A DNA stretch of 64,000 bases from the IMG/VR virus record IMGVR_UViG_3300033141_002732. One strand, written 5' to 3'. Of the stretch, positions 27,343-59,960 are shown one piece after another (the first letter of the stretch is position 1; each line of letters opens with the position of its first letter). Both the position numbers and the translations under genes were made by a program. Source of the DNA: a virus. Its lineage: Duplodnaviria; Heunggongvirae; Uroviricota; Caudoviricetes. The notes under the pieces were generated by a model. The model made no database searches, had not been told where the DNA came from, and saw only the letters and a program-made list of their open reading frames with translations.

Positions 27343-28620
27343 ATGGATATAAAGCAAGAACTTAGTGAATTACAGGAAATGATGAAAATAAAAGGTGTTA
27401 ATTTTAAACCTATATCAGATTCTGATTTCAGAAAGTTTAAAATAAATCCATCTGAAATTAAAAAAGTATCTACAATAGAAGAATTAAGAAATGGAACTCC
27501 AAATATGATTGTTACTGAATCTGTGGCTAATACAACATTTATTCAAAATAATTTTAAGAAACAGAATTTAATAAAGAAGAAAAAATATGTTATGTCTTTG
27601 GGTGTTTATAGTCAACTACATTATGAAATAAATAGAGATGTAAGAATTTTAAAACCTACAAAACCGTTATTTAAGAATATATATAAACCATATTTGGGAC
27701 AAAATCTAAATGGGAAAACGTTATTAGTATGGAGAACTGGAGGAATTGGAGATCTTTTATTTATTAATCCAAACTTAAGATTTTTAAAAGAGAAATATCC
27801 AGATTGTACAATAAAATTTGCTTGTGGACCACAATATCAATCAATGGTTGAAACTTGGGATTTTGTTGATAAAGTCTTAGATTTACCATTTAATATTCAA
27901 CAAGTTATAATGGCTGATTATCATGCTATGTTTGAAGGAGTTATAGAAAGATGTGAAGCAGCTGAAAAAGAAAATGCTTATCGTTTATTTACAAAATGGC
28001 TTAATATTAATTTACCTGATGAATTATTAATACCAAAACAAGAACCAAGAGAAGATAAAGTAAAAGAATGTTATGAAATATTAGATAGAGAATGGGGTTT
28101 AAAAGGAAATGATTTTATATTATTACAACTTAGAGCAAGTTCTCCAATAAGAACTCCAAGACCTGAATTTTCTCAAAATTTAATAAATTTATTAACAGAT
28201 AGAGGACATAATGTTGTTATTACTGATGGTCCACATAAATATCAAGCTATTGAAGATTTAGTTATGAATTTTGTAAAAGATAAAAATAAAGTATTTAATT
28301 TTGCAAATTTTTCAAAAACTTTAGATTATACAATTGCTTTAACTTCATTAGCAAAAGTTGTTGTATCTACAGATTCTGCTCTTATACATGTTGCTCAATC
28401 TTTAGGAATTCCAGCATTTGGAATTTATGGTCCTTTTCTTGGAAGAATTCGTCTTGAAACGTATAAAAATGTTGATTGGATAGATGCACCAAAAAATTGC
28501 TGCCCATGTTTTCTTCATGGACATATGCCTTGCAAACATTCAAAAGATAATTATCCAACCTGTTTTGATACAATAGATTTAAGAGATGTAGTTAATCGAG
28601 TGGAGAAATTAATGATATGA
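27343..28620 (+). CDS. GT9-family (heptosyltransferase-like) glycosyltransferase
   Basis: 'LLVWRTGGIGDLLFINPNLRFLKEKYP' and C-terminal 'STDSALIHVAQSLGIPAFGIYGPF' match GT9 motifs. Confidence 0.6.
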   Translation: MDIKQELSELQEMMKIKGVNFKPISDSDFRKFKINPSEIKKVSTIEELRNGTPNMIVTESVANTTFIQNNFKKQNLIKKKKYVMSLGVYSQLHYEINRDVRILKPTKPLFKNIYKPYLGQNLNGKTLLVWRTGGIGDLLFINPNLRFLKEKYPDCTIKFACGPQYQSMVETWDFVDKVLDLPFNIQQVIMADYHAMFEGVIERCEAAEKENAYRLFTKWLNINLPDELLIPKQEPREDKVKECYEILDREWGLKGNDFILLQLRASSPIRTPRPEFSQNLINLLTDRGHNVVITDGPHKYQAIEDLVMNFVKDKNKVFNFANFSKTLDYTIALTSLAKVVVSTDSALIHVAQSLGIPAFGIYGPFLGRIRLETYKNVDWIDAPKNCCPCFLHGHMPCKHSKDNYPTCFDTIDLRDVVNRVEKLMI

Positions 28621-29424
28621 TTTTATGTGATTATGGTTGTGGAAGAGAAGCAAAATATCAATTTAAAAATGGGAAATGGTGTTGTGAAAATCATTATAGT
28701 AAATGTCTAAAAGTAAGAGAAAAAAGTAGTAAATCACATAAAGGACAAATACCTTGGATAAAAGGTCGAAATCATTCAGAATTAAGTAAAAAGAAAATAA
28801 GTGATAATAATAAAGGAAAAAAAACATTCAGAAAAAACTAAAAGAAAAATATCTAAATCTAATAAAGGATTAACTAAACTTAATATTGAACAAATAAAGA
28901 AAAGATATCCTTTCTTTTCTAAAATAGAAGAAATGAGATATAATCCAAATAAACCTGGAGAAAAAGAAATACAAGTACACTGTAAAAACCATAATTGTCC
29001 TAATTCGAAAGAGATGAATGGTTGGTTTACTCCAACATATAATCAAATACATGAAAGAATAATGGAGATTGAAAAAGACTGGGGAAATGATGGTAAATAT
29101 ATGTATTGTTCAGATGATTGTAAAAAAGAATGTCCTCTATATCATATGAAAACATGTTTATTAAAAAAAGATCAAGAAAATCTTTTTCCATATACTATAG
29201 AAGAATATCAAATATTTAGAGAAGAAGTTCTAAAACGAGATGATTATAAATGTGTTTATTGTGGAGAAAAAGCAGAACATGTTCATCATATTCGTCCGCA
29301 AAAACTAGAACCATTTTTTGCTTTGGATCCAGATTTTGGAATTTCTGTTTGTAAAAAATGTCATTACAAGTACGGACATAAAGATGAATGTAACACTGGA
29401 AACTTAGCTAATAGAATTTGTTAG
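28617..29424 (+). pseudogene. HNH homing endonuclease, second copy, interrupted by +1 frameshift in an A8 run
   Basis: ORFs 28617..28841 and 28801..29424 together parallel the 4178..5056 protein. The frame breaks at A8 (28817-28824) inside a NUMOD3-like 'KGKKHSEKTKRKIS' motif. Confidence 0.55.
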
Positions 29425-30254
29425 GAGAGAAGATGATTAAAATTATGATGACTGTAAGAAATAGATTGAGTATTACAAAGAAAGCAATTTCGGCACTTTT
29501 TCTTCATACAAAAACTCCGTACCAATTATATATTTATGATAACCTTACTGATTTTAGATTAGATGATCATTTCAATTACTTTTATAAATTATATAACCGA
29601 GGAGAAATAACTCAGGTTACATTTAATACTGCTGATTCAACATTTAAAGCATTTTCTAAAGCATCTGCTTGTAATGCTTTTGGTGCACAACATGAACAAG
29701 ATCCAGAAAAAGATAATTATGATTTTCTATTATTTTTAGATAATGATATTATTGTTACTCCTGAATGGGATTTAAGAATATTAAAAGCTTGGAGACAAGT
29801 TAAAAAATTTGGATTAAAAAATATAAAAGCAATATCTCAAAGACCTGGCGGCATTAAAGAAGTTATTGAATATGATAAACCAATTGCTGGTACAAAAGCT
29901 ATTATTGGAAAATTAGGAGGTAGTGGTTTTTGGAGTGTTAAACCTGATTTTTTTAGAGATGTTGGATTTTTAGATTTAAAAAAATTAATTGGTAGAAATA
30001 AGATGCATGATCAATTATATTGGAGAATGATGGATATTTCTACTCAAGGTAAAAAATATATTATGGGTTTGGGTTGTAAATTAGCAATTCATTGTGGACA
30101 TGTTTCTGGATCTATTTGTAATATTTTAGATAAACGTCCTGATGCTTTATATAAAATTAAATTTGAAGAAGCGGAAATAAATATAGATAAAATGTCATTT
30201 GAAGAATTTTATAATTCTATAGTAAATAATAAATTTTTAATAAAAGATTGGTAA
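29418..30254 (+). CDS. GT2-like glycosyltransferase (tentative)
   Basis: N-terminal 'IMMTVRNRLSITKKAISAL...YIYDN' and 'LFLDNDIIVTPEWD' resemble GT2 fold motifs. Confidence 0.4.
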   Translation: MLGEKMIKIMMTVRNRLSITKKAISALFLHTKTPYQLYIYDNLTDFRLDDHFNYFYKLYNRGEITQVTFNTADSTFKAFSKASACNAFGAQHEQDPEKDNYDFLLFLDNDIIVTPEWDLRILKAWRQVKKFGLKNIKAISQRPGGIKEVIEYDKPIAGTKAIIGKLGGSGFWSVKPDFFRDVGFLDLKKLIGRNKMHDQLYWRMMDISTQGKKYIMGLGCKLAIHCGHVSGSICNILDKRPDALYKIKFEEAEINIDKMSFEEFYNSIVNNKFLIKDW

Positions 30255-30281
30255 AATTTTTACAAAAAAAATAAATCTGAG

Positions 30282-30381: not shown

Positions 30382-30816
30382 TCATATGGTTTCTAATTCT
30401 GGACCCATATCAAGACTATTTTCACCATCAGTTAACCAATTTCTTCCACAGCAGTTAAATGTTATATCTCTTTTACATTTATATTTTTTATCTGAATCAC
30501 TTATATATTGTGGAACCTTCAATTTTTTTGGTTCTATTTCTTTTCCGCATTTTCTACAATATACTCCAAACCATTTTATAATAGGTTGTTCTTTAAATGA
30601 AATATATTGTCTTACATCTATGGGAACAATCTCTGAAAATGTTTCTTTTGCTTCTTCCAAAGATGAAAATTTTGATTTATTTAAGATAAATGAAGATATG
30701 ATATTTGATTGTGCTTCTATTATAAATTTTTTCTCTACTTTATTTTCAATAATTTTCCCAAGAAATATTTCTCCAAGATAAACTTTTATTAATGTGATGT
30801 TTTCTTTTTCCAACAT
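30382..30816 (-). CDS. hypothetical protein with zinc-ribbon-like CxxC pairs
   Basis: 'CRKCGKEI...CKRDITFNCC'. Confidence 0.35.
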   Translation of the reverse strand: MLEKENITLIKVYLGEIFLGKIIENKVEKKFIIEAQSNIISSFILNKSKFSSLEEAKETFSEIVPIDVRQYISFKEQPIIKWFGVYCRKCGKEIEPKKLKVPQYISDSDKKYKCKRDITFNCCGRNWLTDGENSLDMGPELETI

Positions 30817-30826
30817 TAAATCTTCC

Positions 30827-31222
30827 TTATTTTTTCAAATCATCAATATGAATTTCTTTTCCATCTGGAAATTTACAATGCAATGTTTTTAAATTGATTT
30901 CGCAACCATATTCTCTTTCAAACTTTTGTATATACCATGGTTTATATATTTGAGCAATTTTTTTAATATGGTTCTTCATTCCATCTGGTAAGTCAATGTT
31001 GTTGAATGTTGACAATCCATTTGTTCCATCTTCTCTTATTGTGTGTTGACATTCATCACATAATGGTTCTCTACAAATAGATTGTCCAAATTCACCACAT
31101 TCATGAGTAGCTGGTTTACCACATGAAACACATTTTAAATCTTTATGTATATCACAATATCTTCCTCCATTTGTTGGAGAATTGCATATTCCTTTCCAAG
31201 CTATTAAAAATTTACAATACAT
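30827..31222 (-). CDS. Cys-rich hypothetical protein
   Basis: Multiple CxxC: 'CVSCGKPATHEC...CREPLCDEC'. Confidence 0.35.
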   Translation of the reverse strand: MYCKFLIAWKGICNSPTNGGRYCDIHKDLKCVSCGKPATHECGEFGQSICREPLCDECQHTIREDGTNGLSTFNNIDLPDGMKNHIKKIAQIYKPWYIQKFEREYGCEINLKTLHCKFPDGKEIHIDDLKK

Positions 31223-31224
31223 TT

Positions 31225-31539
31225 TTAATTCCTTTCTGTAATTTCTGGGGTTGTTCTTCCTATTAACCAGAATTTATTATCATGAAAATAAATAGCTAAA
31301 TATGGAAATTGTTTTTGAAGTGGATTAATTTCAATAACAATAGCTGTTTTATTGATCCATAAAATATGATCTTTATCTAAATAATTAGTAGGAGAATGAT
31401 AAGTAAATGTAATTTGGAATACCCATAATTCTGCAACTTCTTGTGATAATTCACAAATTTGTTGCCAATTTTTTTCTAAATTTGTTGAATAACCTTTTTT
31501 ACATGGATATGAAATATTTTGACCAATAGCTAAATTCAT
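31225..31539 (-). CDS. hypothetical protein
   Basis: 104-aa ORF. Confidence 0.35.
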   Translation of the reverse strand: MNLAIGQNISYPCKKGYSTNLEKNWQQICELSQEVAELWVFQITFTYHSPTNYLDKDHILWINKTAIVIEINPLQKQFPYLAIYFHDNKFWLIGRTTPEITERN

Positions 31540-31606
31540 TATATTTCTCCTTTCTTGAATTCTGTAGAAAATAACTTTTTTATTTCCTACATAATTTATT
31601 ATAAGG

Positions 31607-32293
31607 TTATTTTTTAATTATATCTTTTCTTTGGTTGAGAGCATCTTTTAATATTAAAGTATCTTGTAGTCCGCCAGGTTTAATTGCATCAAAAGGAATT
31701 ACAACAACTGTGTTGTTTGGTCCTTCTGCTAGTTTTACAAGAGTTTCTAATTGTTTCACAGCAAGAATTTCAGGTGTTAGACTTTTTGCTCTAATATTAT
31801 TTGCTGCAGCATCCATTTTAGCTCTTACAAGTTCTGCTTTACCTTGTTCAGCTGCGAGTTCAGCATTCCTTTTTGCTTTTGCTACATTTGCTTTAGCGAT
31901 TGCAGCATTTTCAAGATCTTGAAGTTCAGCTTGTTTAATTGATTCCCTTTTATTTTTGATTTCAATGGGATAGTCAAGATTTGTAATTAAAATATCTGAT
32001 GTTTTGACTGGATATTTTAATTCTTGCATTCTTTTAAGAAATCTGTTTTTGATTTCCTGTCGAATATCTTGTCTCTTTTCCCTGATGTTATCAGTAATAT
32101 AAGGAGACACGACATCTCTTGTAATATTTGAGAGAATATCTTGCATTGTTGTTGAGAAGAATCTATCAAGTGATAAAATAAATCCTTCTGTATCTTCAAC
32201 TTTTGATTTAATAGCAGGAACTTTCTTTTTAATTGTATCAATTGTATTTGGTGAAACTTTGAAAGATCCAATCCATTTTACGCTTACGTCCAT
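31607..32293 (-). CDS. SPFH/band-7 (prohibitin/HflC-like) domain protein
   Basis: Ala-rich coiled segment 'NAAIAKANVAKAKRNAELAAEQGKAELVRAKMDAAANNIRAKSLTPEILAVKQLETL' typical of the SPFH C-terminal region. Confidence 0.5.
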   Translation of the reverse strand: MDVSVKWIGSFKVSPNTIDTIKKKVPAIKSKVEDTEGFILSLDRFFSTTMQDILSNITRDVVSPYITDNIREKRQDIRQEIKNRFLKRMQELKYPVKTSDILITNLDYPIEIKNKRESIKQAELQDLENAAIAKANVAKAKRNAELAAEQGKAELVRAKMDAAANNIRAKSLTPEILAVKQLETLVKLAEGPNNTVVVIPFDAIKPGGLQDTLILKDALNQRKDIIKK

Positions 32294-32319
32294 ATTAATT
32301 TCATCAGCACATAATATTT

Positions 32320-32559
32320 TTAAATCTTTTTTATATGACTTGATTTTTTCATCAACAAAATATGCTCTGGTTCTACCCCTGCACGAAAGGCTTCAGATTC
32401 TTTTACCTGTGTACTTCCATCTGGTTCTACAAGAAGTAATGTCATATCAGGAGGAGCTGTATCACCACAACAACAATCACCACAACCGGTAATGAATATT
32501 GACAACATAAAAATAATACATGCAAATATTATTGAAACTGATTTGAAATTATGAAACAT
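32320..32559 (-). CDS. small lipoprotein with Cys-rich 'CGDCCCGD' segment
   Basis: Signal peptide plus lipobox-like 'FITGC'. Confidence 0.4.
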   Translation of the reverse strand: MFHNFKSVSIIFACIIFMLSIFITGCGDCCCGDTAPPDMTLLLVEPDGSTQVKESEAFRAGVEPEHILLMKKSSHIKKI

Positions 32560-32585
32560 TTTTTTCTCCTTATTGTTTTTTTGTT

Positions 32586-33041
32586 TTAGTTTGATTTTTT
32601 ATTGTTCTTAAATATTTTGTCTATTTCGTCCATTGCTCTATAATTATCTTTTTCTGCTTCCTCTTTTTTTAGATTACTTTTTTCTTTTATCACCTCCCTA
32701 TTTAATTTCTTAATTTCTTCTTTTGAAAGAGTTATAATAGATGAGTCTGGTTCAGCAGTAGTTATTGTTTCTCTTCCTTTTGTTTCAAGAGGATTAGACA
32801 AAAAGGTTATACATACTAATGTTAATATTATAGATGTAAGTAATATAACTATTTGAATAATACGTGTTATATTTTTTACATTATTTATACTTTTATTTAT
32901 AATTGTTTCATTTTTAAACTTTACTTTTTTAATACATTTACAAAAGAAACGAAAAGTAATTTCAAGAGATATAACAATTATAAATGTTAATAAAATAATT
33001 GGTATAATATGCTGTTGTAAATTATCTATAAAACCTTCCAT
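32586..33041 (-). CDS. membrane protein
   Basis: Two predicted TM helices ('IIPIILLTFIIVISLEI', 'IQIVILLTSIILTLVCITFL'). Confidence 0.4.
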   Translation of the reverse strand: MEGFIDNLQQHIIPIILLTFIIVISLEITFRFFCKCIKKVKFKNETIINKSINNVKNITRIIQIVILLTSIILTLVCITFLSNPLETKGRETITTAEPDSSIITLSKEEIKKLNREVIKEKSNLKKEEAEKDNYRAMDEIDKIFKNNKKSN

Positions 33042-33162
33042 AATATAATAAACTCCTTTCTTTTTTTAATAATAAAAACAATCTCACTTTCTATTATTAA
33101 TTTATATATATAATTAGAACAAATTATAAATGAATTTTCTTTCGTTGAAAAGGAGTTAAGAA

Positions 33163-34080
33163 TTGGAGAAAGCTATATTACTTGGTCCTTTTATTGGAGA
33201 GTTTTATTGGGAGTTTGCAAGGTTTGGACCGCTGCTTCCATATTTAAAAGAAAAAGAATTTAAAAATAAAGATATTACTTATATAGTATTTACAAGACAA
33301 GAAAGATATGATATTTATGGAAATTATACAGATATATTTGTTCCATTAAAAATAGATGGTGATTATGATAAATATCAGCCAGATTGTTATAGACTAATTG
33401 GACTTCCAAATTCTGATTATGAAAATTTAGCATATAAACTAAATAGTAAATATTCAAAACGATTTAAAATTATTAAACATATTTACCCTACCTTAAAAAG
33501 AAGATTCTTCGCTCAAAAAAATCAATATCCAATTGATAAAATGTTATTTAAATATTCTCCAAGACAAAATAATTCTTTAGTAGTTGAAAATTATCTTCCT
33601 AAAAATAATAAACCCTTGGTAGTATTAGCCCCAAGATTTAGAAAAGGATTTAGAAGAAATTGGAATCATTGGGGTGAATTTTATGATAAATTATATAATA
33701 ATCAAAATTTAATGAATAATTTTAATTTTATTATTTGTGGAAAAAAAGAAGAATATATTCCAGATGTAAAACATAGATTTTTAGATATGAATGATGTTGA
33801 ATTAATAGAAGGAGTATCAACTGTTGGTATATTAATTGAAATAATGAAGAGATCATTTTTTACATGTGGAAGTCAAAGTGCTATTCCAAATATATCTTTA
33901 CTTTTTGGTATAGAAGCTTTAGAGTGGGGTCATCAAAGAAAACAACATGTAGTATGGTATAATATTAGAAATACCCCAGTAACATATATTGATGATCCAC
34001 ATTATAATATTGATTCTAAGATCATTTTTAAAAAGTTTGAACAAATATTAAATAAGAAATTAAGAAAAAGGAGAGTTTAA
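33163..34080 (+). CDS. paralog family B member 1 (unknown function, TTG start)
   Basis: 'LLGPFIGEFYWEFARFGP...YIVFTRQERYDIYGNYTDIFVPL' is shared with the 34694 ORF. Confidence 0.45.
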   Translation: MEKAILLGPFIGEFYWEFARFGPLLPYLKEKEFKNKDITYIVFTRQERYDIYGNYTDIFVPLKIDGDYDKYQPDCYRLIGLPNSDYENLAYKLNSKYSKRFKIIKHIYPTLKRRFFAQKNQYPIDKMLFKYSPRQNNSLVVENYLPKNNKPLVVLAPRFRKGFRRNWNHWGEFYDKLYNNQNLMNNFNFIICGKKEEYIPDVKHRFLDMNDVELIEGVSTVGILIEIMKRSFFTCGSQSAIPNISLLFGIEALEWGHQRKQHVVWYNIRNTPVTYIDDPHYNIDSKIIFKKFEQILNKKLRKRRV

Positions 34081-53812: not shown

Positions 53813-54138
53813 GAAAAAATGAAAACTCATGTAAAGGATGTGAATTTTTAGGTAGTGATTCATGTAGAGATATATTTTGGTATGTTTGTAGTCATGATTC
53901 CATACTAGAAGAATATCCAGAAGCATTAATATTAAATCAAGATTTAGAAACTCCAGATTGGTGTCCGTTAAGAATTTCTAATGATGATATTGAAATTGAA
54001 AAAGTGATTAATTACATTAGAAAATTTAAAAATCAAATTAAAAGAGTTTATGGATCTTATAATCATGGAAGTGTTTTCTCACCTGTTTATACTCAAGAAA
54101 ATTCCCCACCTGATCAGATAATTATTGTATTTAAATAA
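53809..54138 (+). CDS. small Cys-containing hypothetical protein
   Basis: 109 aa. Confidence 0.35.
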   Translation: MRKNENSCKGCEFLGSDSCRDIFWYVCSHDSILEEYPEALILNQDLETPDWCPLRISNDDIEIEKVINYIRKFKNQIKRVYGSYNHGSVFSPVYTQENSPPDQIIIVFK

Positions 54139-54818: not shown

Positions 54819-55004
54819 ATGTGGAATCTTAAATTATTACTGAATTATTGTGAAGATAATCATGTTTATTTAAATGGAAAATGGGTTCCATCTCGTCCTT
54901 TAAATGGACAAAAAAATATATATCCTTTTTGGAAACGAATTAAAGATTCTTGGAAAGTATTTAAATGTAAAGCAGAAGCATTTGAGTGGCCAGAAGGACA
55001 ATAA
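54819..55004 (+). CDS. small hypothetical protein
   Basis: 61 aa. Confidence 0.3.
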   Translation: MWNLKLLLNYCEDNHVYLNGKWVPSRPLNGQKNIYPFWKRIKDSWKVFKCKAEAFEWPEGQ

Positions 55005-55360
55005 TGAAAGAATTACTATTTTCAGTAACTAAGAAAGATTTAGACATCCAATTTTTTTCTGGAAAAGGTGCTGGTGGTCAACATAGGAATAAACATCAGA
55101 ATTGTGTTCGTATGGTTCATAAAGATTCTGGAGTTATTGTTACTGGTCAAAATAGTAGAAGTAGAAAAGCTAATATAAAAGAAGCTTTTAATAATTTAGT
55201 TAAACATCCTAAATTTAAAATATGGTTAAATAGAACAGCACAAGAAATTATAAATAATGAAAATATAAACCAAACAGTTGATTCAATGATGGACCTTAAA
55301 AATCTAAAAATAGAAGTTAAAGATAAAGATGGAAATTGGGTAGAAAAAAATAATATTTAA
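55004..55360 (+). CDS. ArfB-like peptidyl-tRNA hydrolase / RF-1 GGQ-domain protein
   Basis: 'SGKGAGGQHRNKHQNCVRMVHKDSGVIV' matches the class-I release-factor GGQ domain 'sGpGGQhVNkt.SaVrl.H'. The ATG at 55004 overlaps the upstream stop (TAATG). Confidence 0.6.
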   Translation: MKELLFSVTKKDLDIQFFSGKGAGGQHRNKHQNCVRMVHKDSGVIVTGQNSRSRKANIKEAFNNLVKHPKFKIWLNRTAQEIINNENINQTVDSMMDLKNLKIEVKDKDGNWVEKNNI

Positions 55361-55411: not shown

Positions 55412-56116
55412 ATGAACTATTTAGTTTTTGAAACAATGAAAAAAGTTTTGGAATATGGTGCTTTAGTAATACGAGATGTTGATAATGGTGAAGAACCTTT
55501 TTTATATGCATCTGGTAATTGGGGACCAGGATATGTATCAATTAAAGGTTTAGTTTCTAAACCTCGTCTTTTTGAAAGTATGACATTACAGCTTGCTTCA
55601 AAAATATCATATATTACAGAAATAGATATTGTAGCTGGAAATGTTACTGGAGGAGTTCCACCTTCTGTTTTATTATCCAAACAATTATCTATATTTTATG
55701 GAAAAGATGTACCTCTTCTTTATGTTAGAGATGCTAGAAAAAAAGGTGGTATGAAAGAACTTGTAACTGGACACCGTTCTGAATATAAACGTAAACATGT
55801 TTTAGTTACTGAAGAGTTAGTAAACTTTGCACAAACTACTTGTAATAGTGTGAATATTTTAAGAGAAATGAATTATTATGTTGATTGTTCTTGTTGTATT
55901 TTATTTTATAATAATCCAGTTGCTAATGAAATGTTATATAATAATAAAATAACTATAATATATTTATTTACTTTATCAGAATTACTTTATTGTGCAGAAT
56001 CATGTAATTATTTTTCAAAAAATTTAATTGATAAATATAGAAACTTTTTAGAAGATCCACTAGATTGGCAAAAGAAGAAGGGATTAGAACCAGTGAAAGG
56101 TGGGGGAACTAAATAA
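55412..56116 (+). CDS. orotate phosphoribosyltransferase-like protein
   Basis: 'FLYASGNWGPGYVSIKG' (PyrE hood region 'F.L.SG..SPyY.D') and PRPP-motif-like 'HVLVTEELVNFAQTT'. Confidence 0.5.
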   Translation: MNYLVFETMKKVLEYGALVIRDVDNGEEPFLYASGNWGPGYVSIKGLVSKPRLFESMTLQLASKISYITEIDIVAGNVTGGVPPSVLLSKQLSIFYGKDVPLLYVRDARKKGGMKELVTGHRSEYKRKHVLVTEELVNFAQTTCNSVNILREMNYYVDCSCCILFYNNPVANEMLYNNKITIIYLFTLSELLYCAESCNYFSKNLIDKYRNFLEDPLDWQKKKGLEPVKGGGTK

Positions 56117-56796
56117 TGAAATATCCATTTTTGTTTGTTGCTTTAGATAATCTTTTAGATGATGATCCTGAAATATTATATAAATTATCCGAAGTAGATG
56201 GAAATTTTGGTTTTAAAATAAATTTAGATTATCTTTTATTTATGGGTTTAGATATAATTCCATATTTAAAAGCTTTTAATAGACCATTATTTTTTGATTT
56301 AAAAATGTTTAATGGTAAAAGAACAATGAAAAGATTGGTATATAGATTAGTTGATTCACAAATTGATTTTTTCAATTTTCATATGTTAGCTGATAATCAA
56401 ATTGAATTTATAAATGAAATGGATTTAAAAAATACAAAAGTTTTGGGAGTTACTGTTCTTAGTCATATGAATGAAAGTTATTGTAAATTTATGTTTGGAA
56501 AATCATTAATTGATGTAATTGGTATATTAGAAACTAAAGCTTTGAGTTTAGGATGTCATGGGGTTATTTTACCACCATTCGCTCTTGGAAAAATCAGACA
56601 TGGGAATATTATAAAAGTATCTCCTGGAATTAGGCCAGAATGGTATCAAGATTCAATTCATGTTAATCCTTCTACACCAAAATATGCTGTACAAAATGGT
56701 GCAGATATTTTAGTATGTGGATCTCCAATTATGAAATCCAATGATCCAATTTTAGCTTTGAAAAGAGTGTTAGAAGAAATGGAATGTTCAAAATGA
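56116..56796 (+). CDS. OMP decarboxylase-family protein (PyrF/KGPDC/HPS fold)
   Basis: 'LFVALDNL...FGFKINLDYL...FFDLKMFNGKRTM' parallels 'alD...vKvG...f.DlKlhDIpnTv' of OMPDC. Confidence 0.45.
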   Translation: MKYPFLFVALDNLLDDDPEILYKLSEVDGNFGFKINLDYLLFMGLDIIPYLKAFNRPLFFDLKMFNGKRTMKRLVYRLVDSQIDFFNFHMLADNQIEFINEMDLKNTKVLGVTVLSHMNESYCKFMFGKSLIDVIGILETKALSLGCHGVILPPFALGKIRHGNIIKVSPGIRPEWYQDSIHVNPSTPKYAVQNGADILVCGSPIMKSNDPILALKRVLEEMECSK

Positions 56797-57065
56797 AAAC
56801 TCATTGGTTATTTGGAATAGATCCTAATAAGGAAGTTAAATTTAAAAAAGAAATTGATGAAGAAACTGATTGTAATAAATGTATACATAAAAAGGTTTGT
56901 ATGAGAGATATGCCAAAGAGATGTATAAATTTTGAAATGTCAAATTCAAATGCATTTAGTTGTGGAACTTGTGTACATAATTTTACAAGATTCAGTAGAA
57001 ATTCAATTCCCTGTTTTTATTGTAAAGATTTTTTGGAGGAGTTTAATGGAAAAGAAAAAAATTAA
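56784..57065 (+). CDS. small Cys-rich hypothetical protein
   Basis: 'CNKCIHKKVC...CGTCVHNF...CFYC'. Confidence 0.35.
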   Translation: MFKMKTHWLFGIDPNKEVKFKKEIDEETDCNKCIHKKVCMRDMPKRCINFEMSNSNAFSCGTCVHNFTRFSRNSIPCFYCKDFLEEFNGKEKN

Positions 57066-57819
57066 AACAAATGAAGATTTTAGTAATATGTCTGATGTAT
57101 ATAAAGATTATTTAGAAGAGTTAGTAAATTCTTTTCATAGTTCAACAGGTGCCACTATTTCAAAACTTGAAAACTTTTCTAAATATGTTCCTAGATCATC
57201 AATTTCTAGATTTTTATGTAAATATGAAATATTTAAAAAAATATTAAATATACAGGGATCTATTATAGAAGGTGGAGTATTTTTTGGTGGTGGTTTAATG
57301 ACTTGGGCACAATTAAGTTCAATTCTTGAGCCAGCAAATCATCAAAGGAGAATTATTGGATTTGATACTTTTGCTGGTTTTACTACTGTAACAGGATTTG
57401 ATAAAAGTTCAAAATCTTCACATTTAAATGAAGCTGGATATTATTTTGCTGATTCATATGAAGAATTGCAAAATTCTATTAAAATATATGATATGACTAG
57501 ATATATGAATCATATTAAAAAAATAGAATTAGTAAAAGGTAATGTTGTAGAGACTATACCAAAATATATTAAAGATAATCCTCATTTAATTGTAAGTTTA
57601 TTATATTTAGATTTTGATATTTTTGAACCTACTGCAGCTGCTATTAAAAATTTTCTTCCATTAATGCCAAAGGGTTCAATCATTGCTTTTGATGAATTTG
57701 CACAAGAACTTTGGCCTGGTGAAACTCAAGCAGTTCTTCAAGAATTTCCAGAATTGAATAAATGGAAAATTGAAAGATTTCCATTTGGAACTTCTATTTC
57801 TTATACTATTATTGATTAA
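57047..57819 (+). CDS. TylF/MycF-family sugar O-methyltransferase
   Basis: 'LLYLDFDIFEPTAAAIKNFLPLMPKGSIIAFDEF' matches the macrocin-O-MTase 'D.DlYesT...L..l.p.l..GG.ii.DDY' region; start at 'MEKKKIK' with SD 'ggagg'. Confidence 0.6.
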
Positions 57820-57826: not shown

Positions 57827-57905
57827 TCGCTCGTAGCTCAGTTGGATCTAGAGCAGGAGATTTCTAATCTCCAGGTCGCGGGTTCAAGTCCTGCCGAGCG
57901 AGCCA
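57827..57905 (+). tRNA. tRNA-Arg (anticodon TCT)
   Basis: Cloverleaf: acceptor 'TCGCTCG'/'CGAGCGA', D-arm 'GCTC..GAGC', anticodon stem 'GGAGA/TCTCC' with loop 'TTTCTAA', T-arm 'GCGGG-TTCAAGT-CCTGC', encoded CCA. Confidence 0.8.
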
Positions 57906-57917
57906 CTTTCTAATTAC

Positions 57918-58712
57918 TTGATGGAGATATTTTATATGAAAGCTAGTATTATTATGTGTACTAGAAATAAAAATATATGTTTATCAAATACTTTATATTC
58001 CATTAAAAGACAAATAACTAATATACCATATGAAGTTTGTATTTTAGATGAGAATTCTATAATTGATCCAAAACCAATAATTGATAGAATTTTACCAGAA
58101 GCTAAATATAAAAGATTAGAAAAACAAGTTGGCTTTGGTTTAGCACATAAAATGGTTATGAATTTAGTTTCTGATGATTCTGATATTATAATTATTCAAT
58201 CGAGTGATGTAATGTGGATTCAAAAAGATATCTTACAAAAATTATGTAAAAATGTTTTTAAACATACTATATGTTTACCGGAAGTTCATAATTTAACAGT
58301 TAATAGATATTTTTATAAAAATTTTGAAGAAGATGTTTTGTTGAGAAAAATTAAAAGAAGTAAAACTCAAATTTATTCTGGTAGTAAAAGATCCAATGTA
58401 TGGTTCTTTTTTTTAGGTTCTATTCTTAAAAAAGATTTGGAAGAAATTGGTGGAATGTGGTGTGATGTAAGAATGGATAATCTAATGAGATTTTTAAATT
58501 TTAAAGCAAAATATTTAGATAACTTAAAAGCGATTCACCAAAAACATGAAAGAACAAGTAGAGAGAAATGTGGTCTTGAACATATTTGTGGTACATTATG
58601 TAAAGAAAGACGAAGAAGAAATGACGTTATATTAAAAAGATTATTAAGTAACAAAAAAAAAAAGAATGAGAGAATAAAGAAAATTAGAAAATTAACAAGG
58701 AGGAATAAATAA
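57918..58712 (+). CDS. GT2-like glycosyltransferase with poly-basic C-terminus (tentative)
   Basis: 'ASIIMCTRNKNICLSNTLYSIKRQ...CILDENS' GT2-like N-terminus. Confidence 0.4.
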   Translation: MMEIFYMKASIIMCTRNKNICLSNTLYSIKRQITNIPYEVCILDENSIIDPKPIIDRILPEAKYKRLEKQVGFGLAHKMVMNLVSDDSDIIIIQSSDVMWIQKDILQKLCKNVFKHTICLPEVHNLTVNRYFYKNFEEDVLLRKIKRSKTQIYSGSKRSNVWFFFLGSILKKDLEEIGGMWCDVRMDNLMRFLNFKAKYLDNLKAIHQKHERTSREKCGLEHICGTLCKERRRRNDVILKRLLSNKKKKNERIKKIRKLTRRNK

Positions 58713-58713
58713 A

Positions 58714-58890
58714 ATGGCAGGTGCTACTACTAGAGGAGAAAATGCAGGAAAATTACAAGCTAAAGCTATTATAGAATATATACATTTAATGTATCAAAAT
58801 AATACAGCATTATCATATTTAAATGGTTTAATAAATCTATTAATAGAAGAAAAGAATAGAAGAGAAAAAATAAAGGAAATAAAAATATGA
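58714..58890 (+). CDS. small hypothetical protein (58 aa, not in ORF track)
   Basis: Strong SD 'acaaggaggaataaataaaatg'; stop overlaps the start of the next gene (ATATGA). Confidence 0.35.
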   Translation: MAGATTRGENAGKLQAKAIIEYIHLMYQNNTALSYLNGLINLLIEEKNRREKIKEIKI

Positions 58891-59960
58891 AAATATTTTT
58901 AGTTGTTGGGGCTAGACCAAATTTTATGAAAATAGCTCCGCTAATTCGAGAATTAAAAGGATATCCAAATATTGAATACAAAATAATTCATACGGGACAG
59001 CATTATGATTTTACAATGAGTGAAATATTTTTTAGAAATTTAGATATACCAAAACCTGATATAAATTTAGGAGTTGGATCTTCTAGTCATGCTTTACAAA
59101 CTGCTCAAATAATGTCAAAATTTGAGAGAATATGTTTAGAAGAAGGTCCTGATATTGTTATTGTTGTTGGTGATGTAAATTCTACTTTAGCTTGTTCTTT
59201 AGTAGTATCTAAAATTGGTGGAATTAAGTTAGCTCATATTGAAGCTGGTGAAAGAAGTTTTGATAAAAGTATGCCAGAAGAAACTAATAGAATTGTGGTA
59301 GATCATATTTCTGACTATTTATTTTGTGCGACCCAAAAATCTTATGAAAATTTAAAAAATGAAGGACTTGAAAATAAAGCATTTTTAGTTGGAAATATAA
59401 TAATAGATAATTTGCTTTATTATGAGAAAAAAATTGAACTTATTCGTGATAAAGAACCTCATATTTTACTTACAATACATAGAGAATCTAATACAAATAA
59501 TTTAGAAAATCTTCAAAACATATTAATAGCAGTTTCTAAAATAAAAGATAAATCTGGTGTTAATATAATATTTCCAATTCATCCAAGAACTGCAAAACAA
59601 ATAGAAAAATTTAATTTGTTTCATTATTTACATAATATTGATATTGTAGATCCTATGTCATATTTATCTTTTTTAAAATGTATGAAAAGTGCTTCTCTTG
59701 TATTAACAGATTCTGGTGGTATTCAAGTTGAAACAACAGTTTTAAATATACCATGTTTGACTTTAAGAGATAATACAGAATGGATATTTACTTTATCAGA
59801 AGGTACAAATCAATTAGTTGGAACTGACATAATAAAAATTATTAATAAGTCTCTAAAAATTTTATATTTTCAAGATGTTAATTCTAATTTATCTGAAGAA
59901 ACAAAAAAATTACTAGATGGAAATGTATCTAATAAAATTATAAATATTCTAGTAGAATAG
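58887..59960 (+). CDS. UDP-N-acetylglucosamine 2-epimerase (WecB/NeuC-like)
   Basis: 'MKIFLVVGARPNFMKIAPLIREL...IHTGQHYD' is the canonical family N-terminus; 'VVGDVNSTLA', 'LTDSGGIQVE'. Confidence 0.75.
   Translation: MKIFLVVGARPNFMKIAPLIRELKGYPNIEYKIIHTGQHYDFTMSEIFFRNLDIPKPDINLGVGSSSHALQTAQIMSKFERICLEEGPDIVIVVGDVNSTLACSLVVSKIGGIKLAHIEAGERSFDKSMPEETNRIVVDHISDYLFCATQKSYENLKNEGLENKAFLVGNIIIDNLLYYEKKIELIRDKEPHILLTIHRESNTNNLENLQNILIAVSKIKDKSGVNIIFPIHPRTAKQIEKFNLFHYLHNIDIVDPMSYLSFLKCMKSASLVLTDSGGIQVETTVLNIPCLTLRDNTEWIFTLSEGTNQLVGTDIIKIINKSLKILYFQDVNSNLSEETKKLLDGNVSNKIINILVE

Follow-up and report, generated by a model that had tools for sequence, protein, structure and literature searches.

Glycan-gene islands of a similar sort are already known from aquatic myophages, with large islands of glycosyltransferase and LPS genes described for pelagimyophages and for big cyanomyophages (PMC7029224, PMC12801897). 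Glycosylation of virions by viral enzymes has precedents too. Giant viruses offer one, with clade-specific gene clusters (PMC10117803), and mycobacteriophages are another, cited in PMC12619734, for virus-encoded glycosylation of the virion in the cytoplasm. In view of the published islands, the opinion of the preliminary description that the repertoire reported here is not typical of phages cannot be maintained.

The window (the whole stretch of 64,000 nucleotides that was analysed) contains a dense glycan locus of ~33 kb, from 27.3 to 59.96 kb, as seen in profile searches and two structure predictions. Protein families were assigned by Pfam, NCBIfam and PDB searches, for some genes also by PHROG. 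Among its genes are at least 10 for putative glycosyltransferases and ~17 for enzymes of sugar-nucleotide metabolism or decoration; ~27 of the ~45 ORFs in the block are glycan-related, far above chance expectation. The searches thus bore out the claim of a sugar-nucleotide and glycan island, a very large one, and upheld most of the earlier family assignments: the GT9, GT4 and GT2 transferases, three SDR epimerase/dehydratases, DegT aminotransferase, hexapeptide acyltransferase, Amidohydro_2 protein, two methyltransferases, UDP-GlcNAc 2-epimerase, ATP-grasp and enolase-superfamily proteins.

The contig is viral. It carries phage replication and virion genes (UvsX-like, clamp-loader, RuvC-like and virion-protein PHROGs) and has relatives in IMG/VR. 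The contig is colinear with a 244-kb IMG/VR contig, and the relatives are jumbo phages of 220-312 kb. Next to the locus lie one NUDIX and one actin-like gene and, as described earlier, a replication module of T4 type, in which we find genes resembling UvsX, the gp44 clamp loader, the Dda helicase and RNase H/FEN. The likeness to T4 holds for this module but is distant, with a best identity of ~32% (gp44); one virion protein has a homolog in AR9/PBS1-type jumbo phages. The left part of the locus contains the following features.

27343-28620 (+): core gene 1, GT9-family (heptosyltransferase-like) GT-B, 425 aa (Pfam PF01075, E 4e-8)
28617-28841 (+): small NUMOD3 ORF, insertion within the core
28801-29424 (+): HNH homing endonuclease, insertion within the core, by likeness to 4178-5056 (-)
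29433-30254 (+): core gene 2, GT-A-fold glycosyltransferase, 273 aa (AlphaFold and Foldseek)
30382-33041 (-): islet of six ORFs, outside the glycan system
33163-34080 (+): core gene 3, divergent GT9-like GT-B, 305 aa (AlphaFold and Foldseek)
34694-35512 (+): core gene 4, second, shorter GT9-like paralog, ~270 aa (likeness to core gene 3)
35509-36501 (+): core gene 5, GT4 (Glycos_transf_1; Pfam PF00534, E 1e-13)
36697-37542 (+): core gene 6, GT-D-fold-like protein 1 (PF22882, 39 bits against a cut-off of 27)

The core lies at 27.3-37.5 kb and, with the two insertions excluded, consists of a GT9, a GT-A, a pair of GT9-like enzymes, a GT4 and a GT-D-like enzyme. Core gene 1, which has an extra N-terminal stretch of ~120 aa, matches NCBIfam heptosyltransferase II (E 6e-13, under the cut-off), its profile finds WaaF in the PDB (1psw, E 5e-8), and 27 of the 29 related loci have a homolog, with a median identity of 52%. 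Core gene 2 had been omitted from the earlier list. It belongs to no Pfam or PHROG family; the best Foldseek matches of its AlphaFold model (pLDDT 91.8) are GnT-I (1fo9), SpsA (1qg8), TarP (6h2n) and K4CP (E ~3e-7), and its DND (DxD) motif, D103-N104-D105, is invariant across 36 sequences. There are 736 metagenomic homologs, NCBI names one a GT2 family protein, and the presence of the gene in 29 of 29 loci is set by its use as search anchor. Core gene 3 (pLDDT 94.5, pTM 0.92) has as best PDB matches in Foldseek the GT9 protein 3tov, WaaC (2h1f/2gt1) and WaaF (1psw), with E 9e-8 and TM ~0.55, and TibC (4rb4) is among the matches listed. Neither Pfam nor PHROG has a family for it, and a Pfam domain was found in 0 of 710 homologs. 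The gene occurs in 28 of 29 loci and is preceded, 49 nt upstream, by the motif TTAGAACAAA. Core gene 4 is 30% identical to it and shares the N-terminal motif GPFxGxxxWExxRFxP; its homologs in 26 of 29 loci may include some matches to the longer paralog. Core gene 5 (PHROG 2170 glycosyltransferase) was found in 24 of 29 loci with a median identity of 50%, and core gene 6, whose profile finds the GT-D structure 4pfx (E 0.012), in 19 of 29.

Sequence comparison shows that the core is conserved, in the type of its enzymes and in their order, throughout a widespread clade of uncultured jumbo phages. It is carried by 25 IMG/VR contigs, which reach 312 kb, and its six genes are in syntenic position in 19-29 of the 29 related loci. 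The order NUDIX, actin, GT9, GT-A, GT9-like, GT9-like, GT4, GT-D is identical in loci L007, L009 and L011, and differs in L013 by the loss or absence of the second of the two GT9-like paralogs. Identity of the core to its relatives is at the level of backbone genes. The NUMOD3/HNH insertion (28617-29424), which shares 67% identity with an HNH/NUMOD3 protein encoded at 4178-5056 (-), is present in just 3-4 of 29 relatives, and the minus-strand islet has homologs in none of the 29 loci. The islet encodes Cys-rich proteins, a SPFH/Band 7 protein (31607-32293; Pfam Band_7, E 2e-7) and small membrane proteins, and hydrophobic segments were detected in it. The rest of the locus, 37.5-59.96 kb, is a variable cassette.

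37545-38444 (+): 299-aa protein, semi-variable (weak DUF4915 match, under cut-off)
38445-39233 (+): GT-D-like paralog 2, motif RLGDGD (PF22882, 37 bits)
39457-40590 (+): SQD1/Agl3-family SDR, UDP-sulfoquinovose-synthase-like (NCBIfam NF041015, E 2.6e-92)
40608-41606 (+): NDP-sugar epimerase/dehydratase, extended SDR (Pfam Epimerase, E 4e-39)
41603-42112 (+): 169-aa protein, no family matches
42305-42568 (+): small hydrophobic 87-aa protein, one hydrophobic segment
42583-43740 (+): DegT/DnrJ/EryC1-type sugar aminotransferase (Pfam, E 2e-105; PHROG 3139)
43773-44627 (+): GT-D-like paralog 3, motif RFGDAC (PF22882, 38 bits)
44621-45724 (+): enolase-superfamily (MR/MLE, OSBS/racemase-like) enzyme (Pfam MR_MLE_C, E 6e-10)
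45696-46934 (+): 412-aa protein, partial flavin-reductase-like segment and Cys-rich region (Pfam FMN_red, E 2e-7)
46937-48019 (+): ATP-grasp ligase, PylC-like N-terminus, carbamoyl-phosphate-synthase-like (Pfam PylC-like_N, ATP-grasp_3)
48063-48962 (+): GT-D-like paralog 4, motif RFGDAC (PF22882, 35 bits)
49477-50400 (+): NDP-sugar epimerase/dehydratase (Pfam Epimerase, E 4e-42)
50403-51089 (+): class I SAM methyltransferase (Pfam Methyltransf_11, E 6e-16)
51250-52497 (+): asparagine-synthase-type ATP-dependent amidotransferase (Pfam Asn_synthase, E 4e-23)
52501-53262 (+): Amidohydrolase_2-family metal hydrolase (Pfam PF04909, E 1e-16)
53231-53812 (+): left-handed beta-helix sugar N/O-acyltransferase, NeuD/PglB/VioB type (Pfam Hexapep, E 1e-19)
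54986-55360 (+): RF-1-domain (GGQ) protein, ArfB/peptidyl-tRNA-hydrolase-like (Pfam RF-1, E 8e-15)
55412-56116 (+): PyrE-like orotate phosphoribosyltransferase (NCBIfam PRK00455, E 4e-27, under cut-off)
56116-56796 (+): PyrF-like OMP decarboxylase (PRK00230, E 2e-26, under cut-off; Pfam OMPdecase, E 2e-17)
56932-57819 (+): TylF (macrocin/sugar O-methyltransferase) family protein, likely starting at 57046 (Pfam TylF, E 2e-9)
57827-57905 (+): tRNA-Arg(TCT) (ARAGORN)
57918-58712 (+): GT2-family glycosyltransferase (Pfam Glycos_transf_2, E 6e-8)
58887-59960 (+): non-hydrolysing UDP-GlcNAc 2-epimerase, WecB type, last gene of the locus (Pfam, E 2e-95)
59942-59989 (no strand): palindrome with 20-bp stem (terminator scan)

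The block, described earlier as plus-strand, is not entirely so; it is interrupted by the 2.7-kb minus-strand islet and by further non-glycan genes (the HNH endonuclease, RF-1-domain gene, pyrE- and pyrF-like genes and tRNA-Arg). The palindrome overlaps the WecB stop codon and likely marks the end of the transcription unit; the terminator scan found no plus-strand terminator-like site between 26 and 46 kb.

The six proteins previously given as 4+2 paralogs of unknown function are indeed paralogous, but they are now assigned as four GT-D-like and two divergent GT9-like GT-B proteins. The four match PF22882 with 35-39 bits (cut-off 27) and are 32-48% identical to each other, paralogs 3 and 4 being the 48% pair. 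The N-terminal motif of paralog 1 is RFGDGG, in 110 of the 120 best of its 385 homologs, compared with RFGDGE in the solved GT-D. The SQD1-like SDR matches NF041015 over its full length, yet its score of 310 bits is below the cut-off of 575; PDB SQD1 (1qrr) is matched with E 1.6e-57. In this enzyme Arg replaces the catalytic YxxxK lysine (WYHMSR, FYHLSK in SQD1), which we counted against the reading favoured below; the L011 homolog retains the lysine. The top PDB match of the 40608-41606 SDR is 6vo6 (E 9e-38), and the third SDR is nearest to 2q1w (E 1.7e-72) and 2pzk (E 1.4e-59), which we take to be Bordetella O-antigen SDRs. The nearest NCBIfam model of the aminotransferase is PseC (255 bits, under its cut-off), the enolase-superfamily enzyme has o-succinylbenzoate synthase-like NCBIfam matches under cut-off, and the ATP-grasp ligase matches PRK12767 (E 3e-19). 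The protein named WbpG-like in the preliminary description does have an asparagine-synthase synthetase domain (asn_synth_AEB, residues 95-346), without a glutaminase domain, but it matches no WbpG/WbuX-type model and gave no PDB sequence match. The acyltransferase matches TIGR03570 (E 1e-24). The 2-epimerase scores 322 bits with wecB, above the equivalog cut-off of 210, and fails NeuC with just 93 bits; in L007, where the locus is 15 kb long, a 46%-identical homolog is the closing gene. The start given for the TylF-family gene is that of its gene call (4296-5069 on L003). The 299-aa protein has no PHROG family and homologs in 3 of 29 loci (L011 copy 55% identical), no Pfam or NCBIfam family was found for the two proteins at 41603-42568, and for the 412-aa protein, in which the FMN_red match is limited to residues 88-139, NCBIfam and PDB searches gave no match.

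Compared with related phages, the right two thirds of the locus turn over, but the core is stable. The cassette genes of the window recur in 0-3 of 29 loci, the exception being the acyltransferase (7 of 29). A set of 189 cassette ORFs from 23 loci formed 82 families, 48 of them confined to a single locus; in each of 22 relatives, 3-10 kb of cassette was sampled. Recurring functions are methyl-, acyl-, pyruvyl- and sulfotransferases, a radical SAM enzyme, PIG-L deacetylase and more glycosyltransferases, and sulfoquinovose-like functions are also among the families that turn over. Bacterial surface-antigen loci vary in much the same manner, with shared transferases and differing decoration genes. 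GC3 (9-10%) and codon frequencies (r 0.98-0.99) are alike in backbone, core and cassette. The suggestion of an accessory insertion is contradicted by this codon usage and by the conserved, syntenic left third at backbone identity; the locus is not a foreign insertion and appears to be long-resident and inherited along the phage lineage.

Flippase, polymerase and initiating phosphoglycosyl transferase are absent from the window and from the sampled cassettes of the relatives, polytopic membrane proteins from the window and from the 189 cassette ORFs, and no locus gave a Wzx, Wzy, Bac_transf or ABC Pfam match. With these components missing, a typical O-antigen or capsule cluster is not supported. 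Nor is a nonulosonic-acid pathway: a NeuB/PseI/LegI-type synthase and CMP-transferase are missing, and the 2-epimerase is of the non-hydrolysing WecB type. It must be noted that ~84 kb of a genome of probably >200 kb was covered, thus export, hydroxymethylase or heptose/Kdo genes could sit elsewhere in it.

Virion glycan, host-surface remodelling and DNA hypermodification, listed in the preliminary description, were the right candidates for the role of the locus. Since genes for lipid-carrier initiation, flipping, polymerisation and export are absent from the window and from the sampled cassettes, the glycan is most likely assembled in the cytoplasm and straight onto its final acceptor. We tentatively favour, at a little less than an even chance, a self-contained cytoplasmic glycosylation system making a glycan with a conserved inner and a strain-specific outer part, probably on virion proteins. 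A protein acceptor is favoured because, to our knowledge, the only solved GT-D enzyme (PDB 4pfx) extends a protein O-glycan, because TibC, a protein heptosyltransferase, is a member of the GT9-like fold, and because of the viral precedents. The DXE metal-binding motif is, however, without its Glu in the GT-D-like proteins, and none of the genes beside the locus is recognisable as a capsid, tail or fibre gene; both points count against this reading. The main rival, in which the phage remodels a glycolipid of the host envelope or a wall polymer, seems to us possible but less likely. Characterised GT9 enzymes are mostly LPS heptosyltransferases, and the three GT9-type enzymes and the GT4 resemble an LPS inner-core toolkit; both points weigh against the virion-protein reading, as does the published interpretation of comparable pelagimyophage islands, which favours host-surface modification (PMC7029224).

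The enzyme families, the division into core and cassette, the lack of export genes and the viral context are observed; which sugars are made, in what order they are joined, what accepts them and what the phage gains are what we infer. The six soluble core transferases would assemble a common inner oligosaccharide. From the UDP-GlcNAc and UDP-hexoses of the host, the cassette enzymes would make rare donors, namely UDP-ManNAc-type, amino and N-acyl sugars and possibly one like sulfoquinovose. They would also provide carboxamide, amino-acid and O-methyl decorations, and the PyrE- and PyrF-like enzymes may supply UMP for UDP-sugars. Four cassette transferases, three GT-D-like and the GT2, would add the strain-specific outer part. 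The acceptor would most likely be phage-made, i.e. the surface proteins of the virion. If this is true, each strain would carry its own glycan coat, shielding or tuning the surface of the particle.

The contig is viral, from a clade of jumbo phages whose resemblance to T4 is only distant. The window (24% G+C, single strand switch near 18.4 kb) is contained in the JGI metagenome contig Ga0366832_1000077 (128,683 bp), and the same phage is also present on a contig of 151,964 bp. Pfam and PHROG matches identify a phage replication and recombination module in the left 18 kb, on the minus strand, with genes for a Cas4-like nuclease, a UvsX-like recombinase (PHROG E 8e-41), ribonucleotide reductase, a RuvC-like resolvase, an RNase H/FEN-like exonuclease (with a Pfam 5'-3' exonuclease match), a gp44-like clamp loader (PHROG E 5e-52), a Dda/PIF1-like helicase (also matched in Pfam) and an HNH homing endonuclease. 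The product of 9410-10129 (minus strand) shows about 28% identity to a virion protein of AR9/PBS1-type jumbo phages, and its relatives among deposited phages are only virion proteins (AR9, PBS1, and Listeria, Staphylococcus and Yersinia jumbo phages). An IMG/VR contig of 244,552 bp is colinear with window positions 39-18938 at 43-68% amino acid identity. It is the replication module, the virion protein homolog and this colinear contig that identify the sequence as viral.

The preliminary description had called the phage T4-like. The replication and recombination module is indeed of the T4 type (UvsX, clamp loader, Dda, RNase H), but identity of the clamp loader to its cyanomyophage and PA5oct counterparts does not exceed 32%, and the virion protein homolog is of the AR9/PBS1 type. 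T4-type structural genes (gp23 capsid, gp20 portal, gp18 sheath etc.) were found neither in the window nor in its 10-kb flanks. Among 50,697 phage records, megablast found nothing matching a 50-kb portion of the window, an exact 50-mer of the window was absent from IMG/VR, a scan of IMG/VR with the DegT protein found nothing, and a database look-up of the protein encoded by 943-1509 returned nothing.

Some further features of this region deserve mention. Several of the jumbo phages with relatives of this virion protein have uracil-containing DNA; pyrE-/pyrF-like genes and a nearby dCMP deaminase gene were noted here alongside the AR9/PBS1-type virion protein homolog. A Q_salvage (DUF2419)-like gene lies at 6812-7666 (minus strand), and QueC, dCMP deaminase and dGTP_diPhyd_N genes lie downstream of the window (14156-14716 and 16296-16664 of L003, a contig covering the right end of the window and the sequence beyond it), together pointing tentatively to a 7-deazaguanine-type modification of the phage DNA. 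The replication module also contains three ORFs, which are an uncommon combination in a phage:

8041-8454, minus strand: stand-alone LigD 3'-phosphoesterase domain
7697-8038, minus strand: rubrerythrin-like protein
1534-1824, minus strand: KhpA/B-type KH-domain protein

Small Cys-rich proteins (CxxC, zinc-ribbon-like) are unusually numerous across the replication module and the glycan locus, and they match no family:

13823-14131, minus strand: small Cys-rich ORF
30382-31222, minus strand: small Cys-rich ORF
53809-54138, plus strand: small Cys-rich ORF
56784-57065, plus strand: small Cys-rich ORF
39234-39456 and 51090-51249: small unlisted ORFs

All 47 ORFs of at least 80 amino acids at or beyond 27.3 kb were included in a Pfam and NCBIfam scan. 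The preliminary description had proposed a glycan island of about 33 kb at 27343-59960, and nearly all of the families it had assigned were recovered at their positions: GT9, GT4 and GT2 glycosyltransferases (GTs), three extended SDRs, a DegT aminotransferase (E 2e-105), an Amidohydro_2 protein, a NeuD/PglB/VioB-type hexapeptide acyltransferase, two methyltransferases (one of TylF type), an ATP-grasp ligase and an enolase-superfamily enzyme. The protein described as WbpG-like did not bear out that name, its only match being an asparagine-synthase synthetase domain. In total, the block accounts for 10 or more putative glycosyltransferases and some 17 tailoring enzymes; a further GT1 gene lies about 11 kb past its right end. 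Six of the transferase genes form what we call the core:

27343-28620: GT9 transferase
29433-30254: GT-A transferase
33163-34080: GT9-like transferase
34694-35512: GT9-like transferase
35509-36501: GT4 transferase
36697-37542: GT-D-like transferase, paralog #1

The GT9 gene is a true sequence member of its family (PF01075 33 bits, cut-off 22). Sequence-only searches of the PDB gave nothing usable for the GT9-like and GT-A families, so that structure prediction was needed to identify them. The GT9-like paralogs match neither PF01075 nor any NCBIfam family, and hhalign against the GT9 profile gave a probability of 3%, while the AlphaFold model (36 homologs, pLDDT 94.5) has a GT-B fold whose best structural matches are the GT9 structure 3tov, WaaC and WaaF, with TibC also listed. 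The two enzymes share with GT9 the fold only, at about 10% identity. The model of the 29433-30254 product (pLDDT 91.8) has a GT-A transferase fold with an invariant DND motif; its structural matches include TarP, a prophage-encoded enzyme modifying host wall teichoic acid.

The preliminary description had also listed four plus two paralogous proteins of unknown function. The paralogy was correct, but the proteins are less mysterious: AlphaFold and Foldseek make the pair the GT-B enzymes resembling GT9, and Pfam (PF22882) gives the other four a GT-D-like fold. The four GT-D-like paralogs (262-299 amino acids) score 35-39 bits with PF22882 (cut-off 27) and below the cut-off of NCBIfam GT-D_rel; they are 32-38% identical to paralog #1, and #3 and #4 are 48% identical to each other. 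All four thus share an above-threshold GT-D domain with the GT-D enzyme of streptococcal serine-rich-repeat adhesins (DUF1792, 4pfx/4phr), with which an N-terminal RxGD and a C-terminal D-x-G region can be aligned. The alignment to 4pfx is, however, weak (E 0.012), and the DXE metal motif has lost its Glu (GDGE in the solved GT-D, but DGG, DGD, DAC and DAC in the four paralogs); their activity is putative. Among the 120 best metagenomic homologs 110 have RFGDGG. Five of the six core families (GT9, GT-A, both GT9-like and GT-D-like) and the protein encoded by 37545-38444, in the adjoining part of the locus, belong to no PHROG family, which makes them candidates for new glycosyltransferase activities.

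The remainder of the locus (37.5-59.96 kb), referred to as the cassette, encodes sugar-nucleotide and decoration enzymes and four more GTs. The SDR at 39457-40590 is a full-length homolog of UDP-sulfoquinovose synthase (NF041015 E 2.6e-92, positions 2-374 of 384; SQD1 structure 1qrr, E 1.6e-57, residues 1-345), which misses the NF041015 equivalog cut-off (310 vs. 575 bits). In its active site Thr146, Tyr179 and His180 are kept, but the Lys of YxxxK is replaced by Arg183 (WYHMSR); the homolog in the related locus L011 retains the Lys. Judged by these residues, the enzyme may have lost its activity or changed its chemistry. One viral gene resembling UDP-sulfoquinovose synthase was reported earlier (PMC7785012). 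The SDR at 49477-50400 is closest in the PDB to 2q1w and 2pzk (E 2e-72), two Bordetella O-antigen SDRs. The UDP-GlcNAc 2-epimerase (58887-59960) is of the non-hydrolysing WecB type (wecB 322 bits, cut-off 210) and scores far below the cut-off of the hydrolysing NeuC type (NeuC_NnaA 93 bits, cut-off 236); a palindrome with a 20-bp stem overlaps its stop codon in the window. PDB searches by sequence gave nothing usable for the AsnB-like protein, a 412-aa protein and the ATP-grasp ligase. A pathway of the 2,3-diacetamido-uronic-acid type (2q1w-like SDR, WecB/WbpI-type epimerase, DegT, hexapeptide acyltransferase and AsnB-like amidotransferase) was considered and weighed against one of the 4-amino-4,6-dideoxy type, but all specific equivalog cut-offs were missed, and the window contains no UDP-GlcNAc 6-dehydrogenase or WbpB-type oxidoreductase.

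The block also carries passengers unrelated to glycans: an HNH endonuclease, a minus-strand islet (30382-33041) with an SPFH protein, an RF-1-domain protein, pyrE-/pyrF-like genes, small Cys-rich ORFs and a tRNA-Arg(TCT). The HNH/NUMOD3 homing endonuclease at 28801-29424 (plus strand), which is inserted between the first two core genes, is 67% identical to the one at 4178-5056 (minus strand). The RF-1-domain protein in the middle of the cassette (54986-55360, plus strand; GGQ motif, ArfB/peptidyl-tRNA-hydrolase-like) could serve in rescue of stalled ribosomes, or in stop-codon handling as in other large phages.

Homologs of the core enzymes are numerous (385 GT-D-like, 710 GT9-like and 736 GT-A protein clusters), all metagenomic and typically 50-60% identical. 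The contigs with homologs reach 304-312 kb, and sizes of 223-312 kb are found among the relatives; examples are IMGVR_UViG_3300032046_000001 (312 kb) and IMGVR_UViG_3300001782_000005 (277 kb). Gene contexts were recovered for 29 related loci using the GT-A family as search anchor. Upstream, all 29 show synteny: NUDIX, the actin-like Volactin, then GT9, GT-A, GT9-like, a small ORF, GT9-like, GT4 and GT-D-like.

Occurrence of homologs of window genes in the 29 related loci
GT9: 27 of 29
GT-A: 29 of 29 (search anchor)
GT9-like, longer paralog: 28 of 29
GT9-like, shorter paralog: 26 of 29
GT4: 24 of 29
GT-D-like: 19 of 29
Window genes of 37.5-59 kb: 0-3 of 29
Hexapeptide acyltransferase: 7 of 29
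HNH insertion, at the same place: 3 of 29
Minus-strand islet: 0 of 29

The actin homolog (25419-26480, plus strand) matches the archaeal Volactin family PF25216 over its full length (E 2e-65). It is located about 0.9 kb upstream of the glycan core, with two small ORFs between them in the relatives examined, and was detected in 21 of the 29 loci (median identity 65%). It may be a cytoskeletal element of the jumbo phage with a role like that of PhuZ in nucleus-forming phages. A Volactin scan of IMG/VR yielded only distant matches (33-35% identity), uninformative as to the island.

The part following the core is very different from one relative to the next. In 23 loci the 3-10 kb immediately past the core contained 189 ORFs, which fell in 82 families, 48 of them confined to a single locus and only three present in seven or more. 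The L007 cassette encodes hexapeptide acyltransferases, a PIG-L protein, a radical SAM/B12 enzyme, a WbpB-like oxidoreductase and WecB (here the complete locus measures about 15 kb and likewise has the WecB homolog at its end), that of L009 three GT2s and methyltransferases, that of L013 five or six methyltransferases, and that of L011 two sulfotransferases, an APS kinase and an SQD1-like SDR. The PAPS-type sulfotransferase and APS kinase genes of L011 are at 11746-12501, 18643-19347 and 20360-20734; such decoration genes occur in further relatives. Polysaccharide pyruvyl transferase occurs in the cassettes of other relatives, and the clade seems to return repeatedly to strongly anionic decoration.

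These comparisons speak against the suggestion that the island is an accessory insertion. The core genes are syntenic and their identities (48-53%) are those of the backbone genes. A compositional island is ruled out: G+C content and codon usage equal those of the backbone, with GC3 values of 9.2% for the backbone, 10.5% for the core and 9.8% for the cassette, and codon-frequency correlations (r) of 0.98-0.99. Only the cassette turns over. The conserved core and the shared codon bias show that the locus is not a recent insertion but an old, clade-defining feature, consisting of a conserved core and a fast-evolving cassette.

A Shine-Dalgarno core (GGAG, GAGG, AGGA or AAGG) lies within 20 nt before the start of 52 of 67 genes (78%), compared to 6.8% at random positions. 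Heavy use of Shine-Dalgarno sequences is atypical of Bacteroidota and their phages, which argues against a host from this phylum. The T4 late-promoter motif TATAAATA is mildly enriched (48 occurrences, 33 expected), and the copies are not positioned upstream of genes; sigma-70-like sites were found at background level only. Another motif, (T)TAGAACAAA, was noticed at 33114, 20294/20258, 60177, 62710, 1884, 3991, 15533 and 62862. It lies 41-60 nt upstream of five starts (33163, 20354, 60218, 62751 and, on the minus strand, 1534), and 5 upstream regions contain its nine-base core TAGAACAAA (about 0.5 expected), with an inverted pair at 20258/20294. The element may be a phage promoter or operator.

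The repertoire had been likened to O-antigen, capsule or nonulosonic-acid pathways. As in O-antigen and capsule loci, NDP-sugar synthesis genes are clustered with several GT genes and their content varies among strains, but the other functions of such loci are missing. No initiating phosphoglycosyl transferase (PGT; Bac_transf, Glycos_transf_4) was detected in the window, in the gene calls of the relatives or among the cassette representatives, and profile searches of the block revealed no Wzx, Wzy, WaaL, oligosaccharyltransferase or ABC exporter. A hydropathy scan of the glycan block, within the approximately 84 kb sampled, found no protein with three or more hydrophobic segments, and a polytopic membrane protein is likewise absent among the 189 cassette ORFs of the 23 loci. 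An O-antigen or capsule locus of the Wzx/Wzy or ABC type is therefore not supported. A nonulosonic-acid pathway is likewise not supported: no block ORF matched, in Pfam or NCBIfam, a NeuB/PseI/LegI condensing synthase or a CMP-NulO synthetase (NeuB, CTP_transf_3 families), and the 2-epimerase is WecB, not of the NeuC type.

We propose that the six core GTs build a common inner oligosaccharide, while the cassette would convert host UDP-GlcNAc and UDP-hexose to rare donors, which its own GTs would attach. Candidate steps of donor synthesis are WecB-type epimerisation, transamination of a keto-sugar and N-acylation, O-methylation, and ligation of a carboxamide or amino acid by the AsnB-like, ATP-grasp and racemase-like enzymes; a sulfoquinovose-like sugar is a possible product. 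The PyrE-/PyrF-like proteins may raise the supply of UMP, hence of UDP-sugars. Three of the four cassette GTs are GT-D-like paralogs, each located beside a different group of tailoring genes, which suggests that the cassette grew module by module.

Because no function for translocating the glycan across a membrane is encoded in anything sampled, the acceptor is most simply one accessible from the cytoplasm. The known acceptors of GT-D and TibC-type enzymes are proteins. These precedents, and the virus-encoded cytoplasmic glycosylation of virions by clade-specific gene clusters in giant viruses (PMC10117803, PMC9614988) and, in a simpler version, in mycobacteriophages (cited in PMC12619734), favour the structural proteins of the phage, an assignment by analogy to which we would give slightly less than an even chance. 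What fits virion glycosylation here is the set of enzymes and the missing export genes. More tentatively, the whole system can be viewed as a clade-wide, host-independent "serotype" coat, in which virion proteins would receive an inner oligosaccharide directly from the core enzymes while still in the cytoplasm, and the outer sugars would vary between strains through exchangeable cassettes (sulfonate/sulfate, pyruvate, methyl, acyl, amino-acid amide).

The strongest rival explanation is that the substrate of the GTs is a host glycolipid or the precursor of a wall polymer, reached from the cytoplasmic side of the membrane. It could be lipid A-Kdo (the result being another kind of LPS/LOS core plus outer core) or a polymer of the teichoic-acid type, with export by the host's MsbA/Lpt or TarGH, and the altered surface of the infected cell would block superinfection by competing phages or prevent loss of progeny on debris. 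We consider this possible, though less likely than virion glycosylation. A core with three GT9-type enzymes, a GT4 and a GT-A resembles the waa set of Gram-negative bacteria, where soluble or peripheral cytoplasmic enzymes act sequentially and a conserved inner part bears a variable outer part; as LPS-core assembly needs no Und-P, Wzx, Wzy or PGT, the absence of export genes fits this explanation too. Hypervariability would be expected from an arms race among competing phages, TarP is among the structural matches of the GT-A model, and modification of the host O-chain with avoidance of coinfection is what has been proposed in print for the GT-rich hypervariable islands that pelagimyophages and large cyanomyophages carry (PMC7029224, PMC12801897). 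However, unlike waa loci, this locus is in a viral genome, ADP-heptose, Kdo and WaaA (GT30) genes are lacking in the window and in the relatives' cassettes, two of the three GT9-type enzymes are GT9 by fold only, and the role known for GT-D is on proteins. A lytic jumbo phage would probably gain little from altering newly made LPS alone, and a Gram-negative host is not established, given the frequency of Shine-Dalgarno sequences and the Bacillota phages among the sources of the virion protein relatives.

It is improbable that the sugars are placed on modified bases of the DNA (hydroxymethyl-pyrimidines or others) as a protection against restriction, as in T-even phages and in the more recently described glycan-hypermodifying viruses. 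Virus-encoded GTs can add more than one sugar to DNA (bioRxiv 10.1101/2023.12.21.572611), the phage has nucleotide- and base-modification genes (the Q_salvage-like gene of 6812-7666; QueC, dCMP deaminase and dGTP_diPhyd_N just past the window), and there are pyrE-/pyrF-like genes within the block. On the other hand, no enzyme creating the acceptor base was detected: neither a dCMP/dUMP hydroxymethylase (thymidylate-synthase-like), nor a TET/JBP dioxygenase, nor a T4-type alpha- or beta-glucosyltransferase was found in the 64 kb or the flanks. The number of enzymes, ten GTs and some 17 for tailoring (acyl, amidino/amide, amino-acid ligase, methyl, sulfo), looks far beyond the need, and we know of no DNA glycan that approaches such a number; serotype-like gene variation would also be unexpected for a mark that has to be compatible with the phage's own replication enzymes. 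Still less credible, and largely refuted, is the idea that the DNA comes from a cellular chromosome, bacterial or archaeal, or from a chimeric assembly, and that the block is an ordinary polysaccharide locus. One relative, L013 (DAOVGR010000028.1, 54.5 kb), is in a 'Thermoplasmatales archaeon' MAG of a cold-seep catalogue, another, P0263 (255.6 kb), is labelled 'Candidatus Thorarchaeota archaeon', and the neighbouring actin-like gene matches the archaeal Volactin family. But the replication genes and the GT core occur in the same order on independent JGI, ENA, Logan, NCBI and IMG/VR assemblies, the 84 kb contain neither ribosomal nor housekeeping genes, phage hallmarks (UvsX, gp44, RuvC, homing endonucleases, a virion protein) are present, and the composition is uniform. 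The family was found in 1 of 185,579 species genomes, as expected from a mis-binned viral contig, and the two archaeal labels probably have the same origin. An archaeal host, suggested by the two MAG labels and the Volactin match, was not adopted, because it would be deduced from binning labels only.

It is instructive to compare the locus with other virus-encoded glycan systems. Chlorovirus N-glycans consist of a conserved core with strain-specific decoration. The clade-specific glycan clusters of Megavirinae and the glycosylation of chloroviruses (PMC10117803, PMC9614988) share with our locus virus-encoded rare "bacterial-like" sugars (amino, N-acetyl and methylated), soluble GTs, a UDP-GlcNAc 2-epimerase, independence of host ER and lipid-carrier routes and a clade-dependent gene content. 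These viruses differ in having eukaryotic hosts and glycans chemically demonstrated on fibrils or capsid, whereas ours is a tailed phage. In mycobacteriophages, cytoplasmic GTs encoded by the phage modify proteins of the capsid and tail tube, altering recognition of the virion surface; as that work is cited (Freeman et al. 2023, in PMC12619734), only one or two GT genes, beside the structural genes, are involved, host sugars are used and there is no sugar-nucleotide pathway. The jumbo-phage locus, with its much larger enzyme set, is away from recognisable structural genes.

The islands of pelagimyophages (PMC7029224) and large cyanomyophages (S-SCSM2R, P-SSM2 and S-SCSM1 in PMC12801897) are also found in aquatic myophages with T4-type replication genes, and comprise tens of kb of non-syntenic DNA rich in GTs and NDP-sugar epimerases. 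They are situated in the structural region with the tail fibres, between VrlC and gp14, GT8 is dominant and a multi-GT core was not described, whereas our locus follows the actin-like gene beside the replication module and has a clade-wide core of six GTs. Also comparable are the "moraphages", uncultured jumbo phages of 200-307 kb from freshwater, marine and sediment metagenomes, which are related to the sediment "ERM" phages and have four putative glycosyltransferases among their core orthogroups (PMC12619734). Sizes (200-307 vs. 223-312 kb), habitats and GT orthogroups fit, in a comparison made without shared sequence or contig identifiers, and the two clades are possibly related or identical. 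Bacteroidota hosts were predicted for moraphages, in contrast to what the Shine-Dalgarno sequences suggest here.

Large glycan-gene islands of aquatic myophages and putative GTs among moraphage core genes (PMC12619734) are thus already documented. In the literature searched, we did not find described a six-GT core common to hundreds of relatives, its largely PHROG-less composition, the serotype-fast turnover of cassettes with sulfo, sulfate, pyruvyl and methyl chemistry, or the consistent lack of export genes. The glycan-gene islands of big aquatic phages have been noticed for 15 years, and to our knowledge their role has never been established. The locus offers a cleaner handle on island function than earlier examples, because a fixed set of six enzymes is present in hundreds of relatives, the turnover of the cassette can be read as diversifying selection, and the absence of export machinery narrows the range of possible acceptors. 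If the proposed coat exists, it would be a phage counterpart of the LPS core and O-antigen, on the particle and not on the cell, and its chemistry would include anionic sulfo-sugars, which we have not seen reported for any phage virion. If the virion is the acceptor, the particles would bear strain-specific, partly sulfated or sulfonated glycans, which would affect their adsorption, stickiness, decay and grazing.
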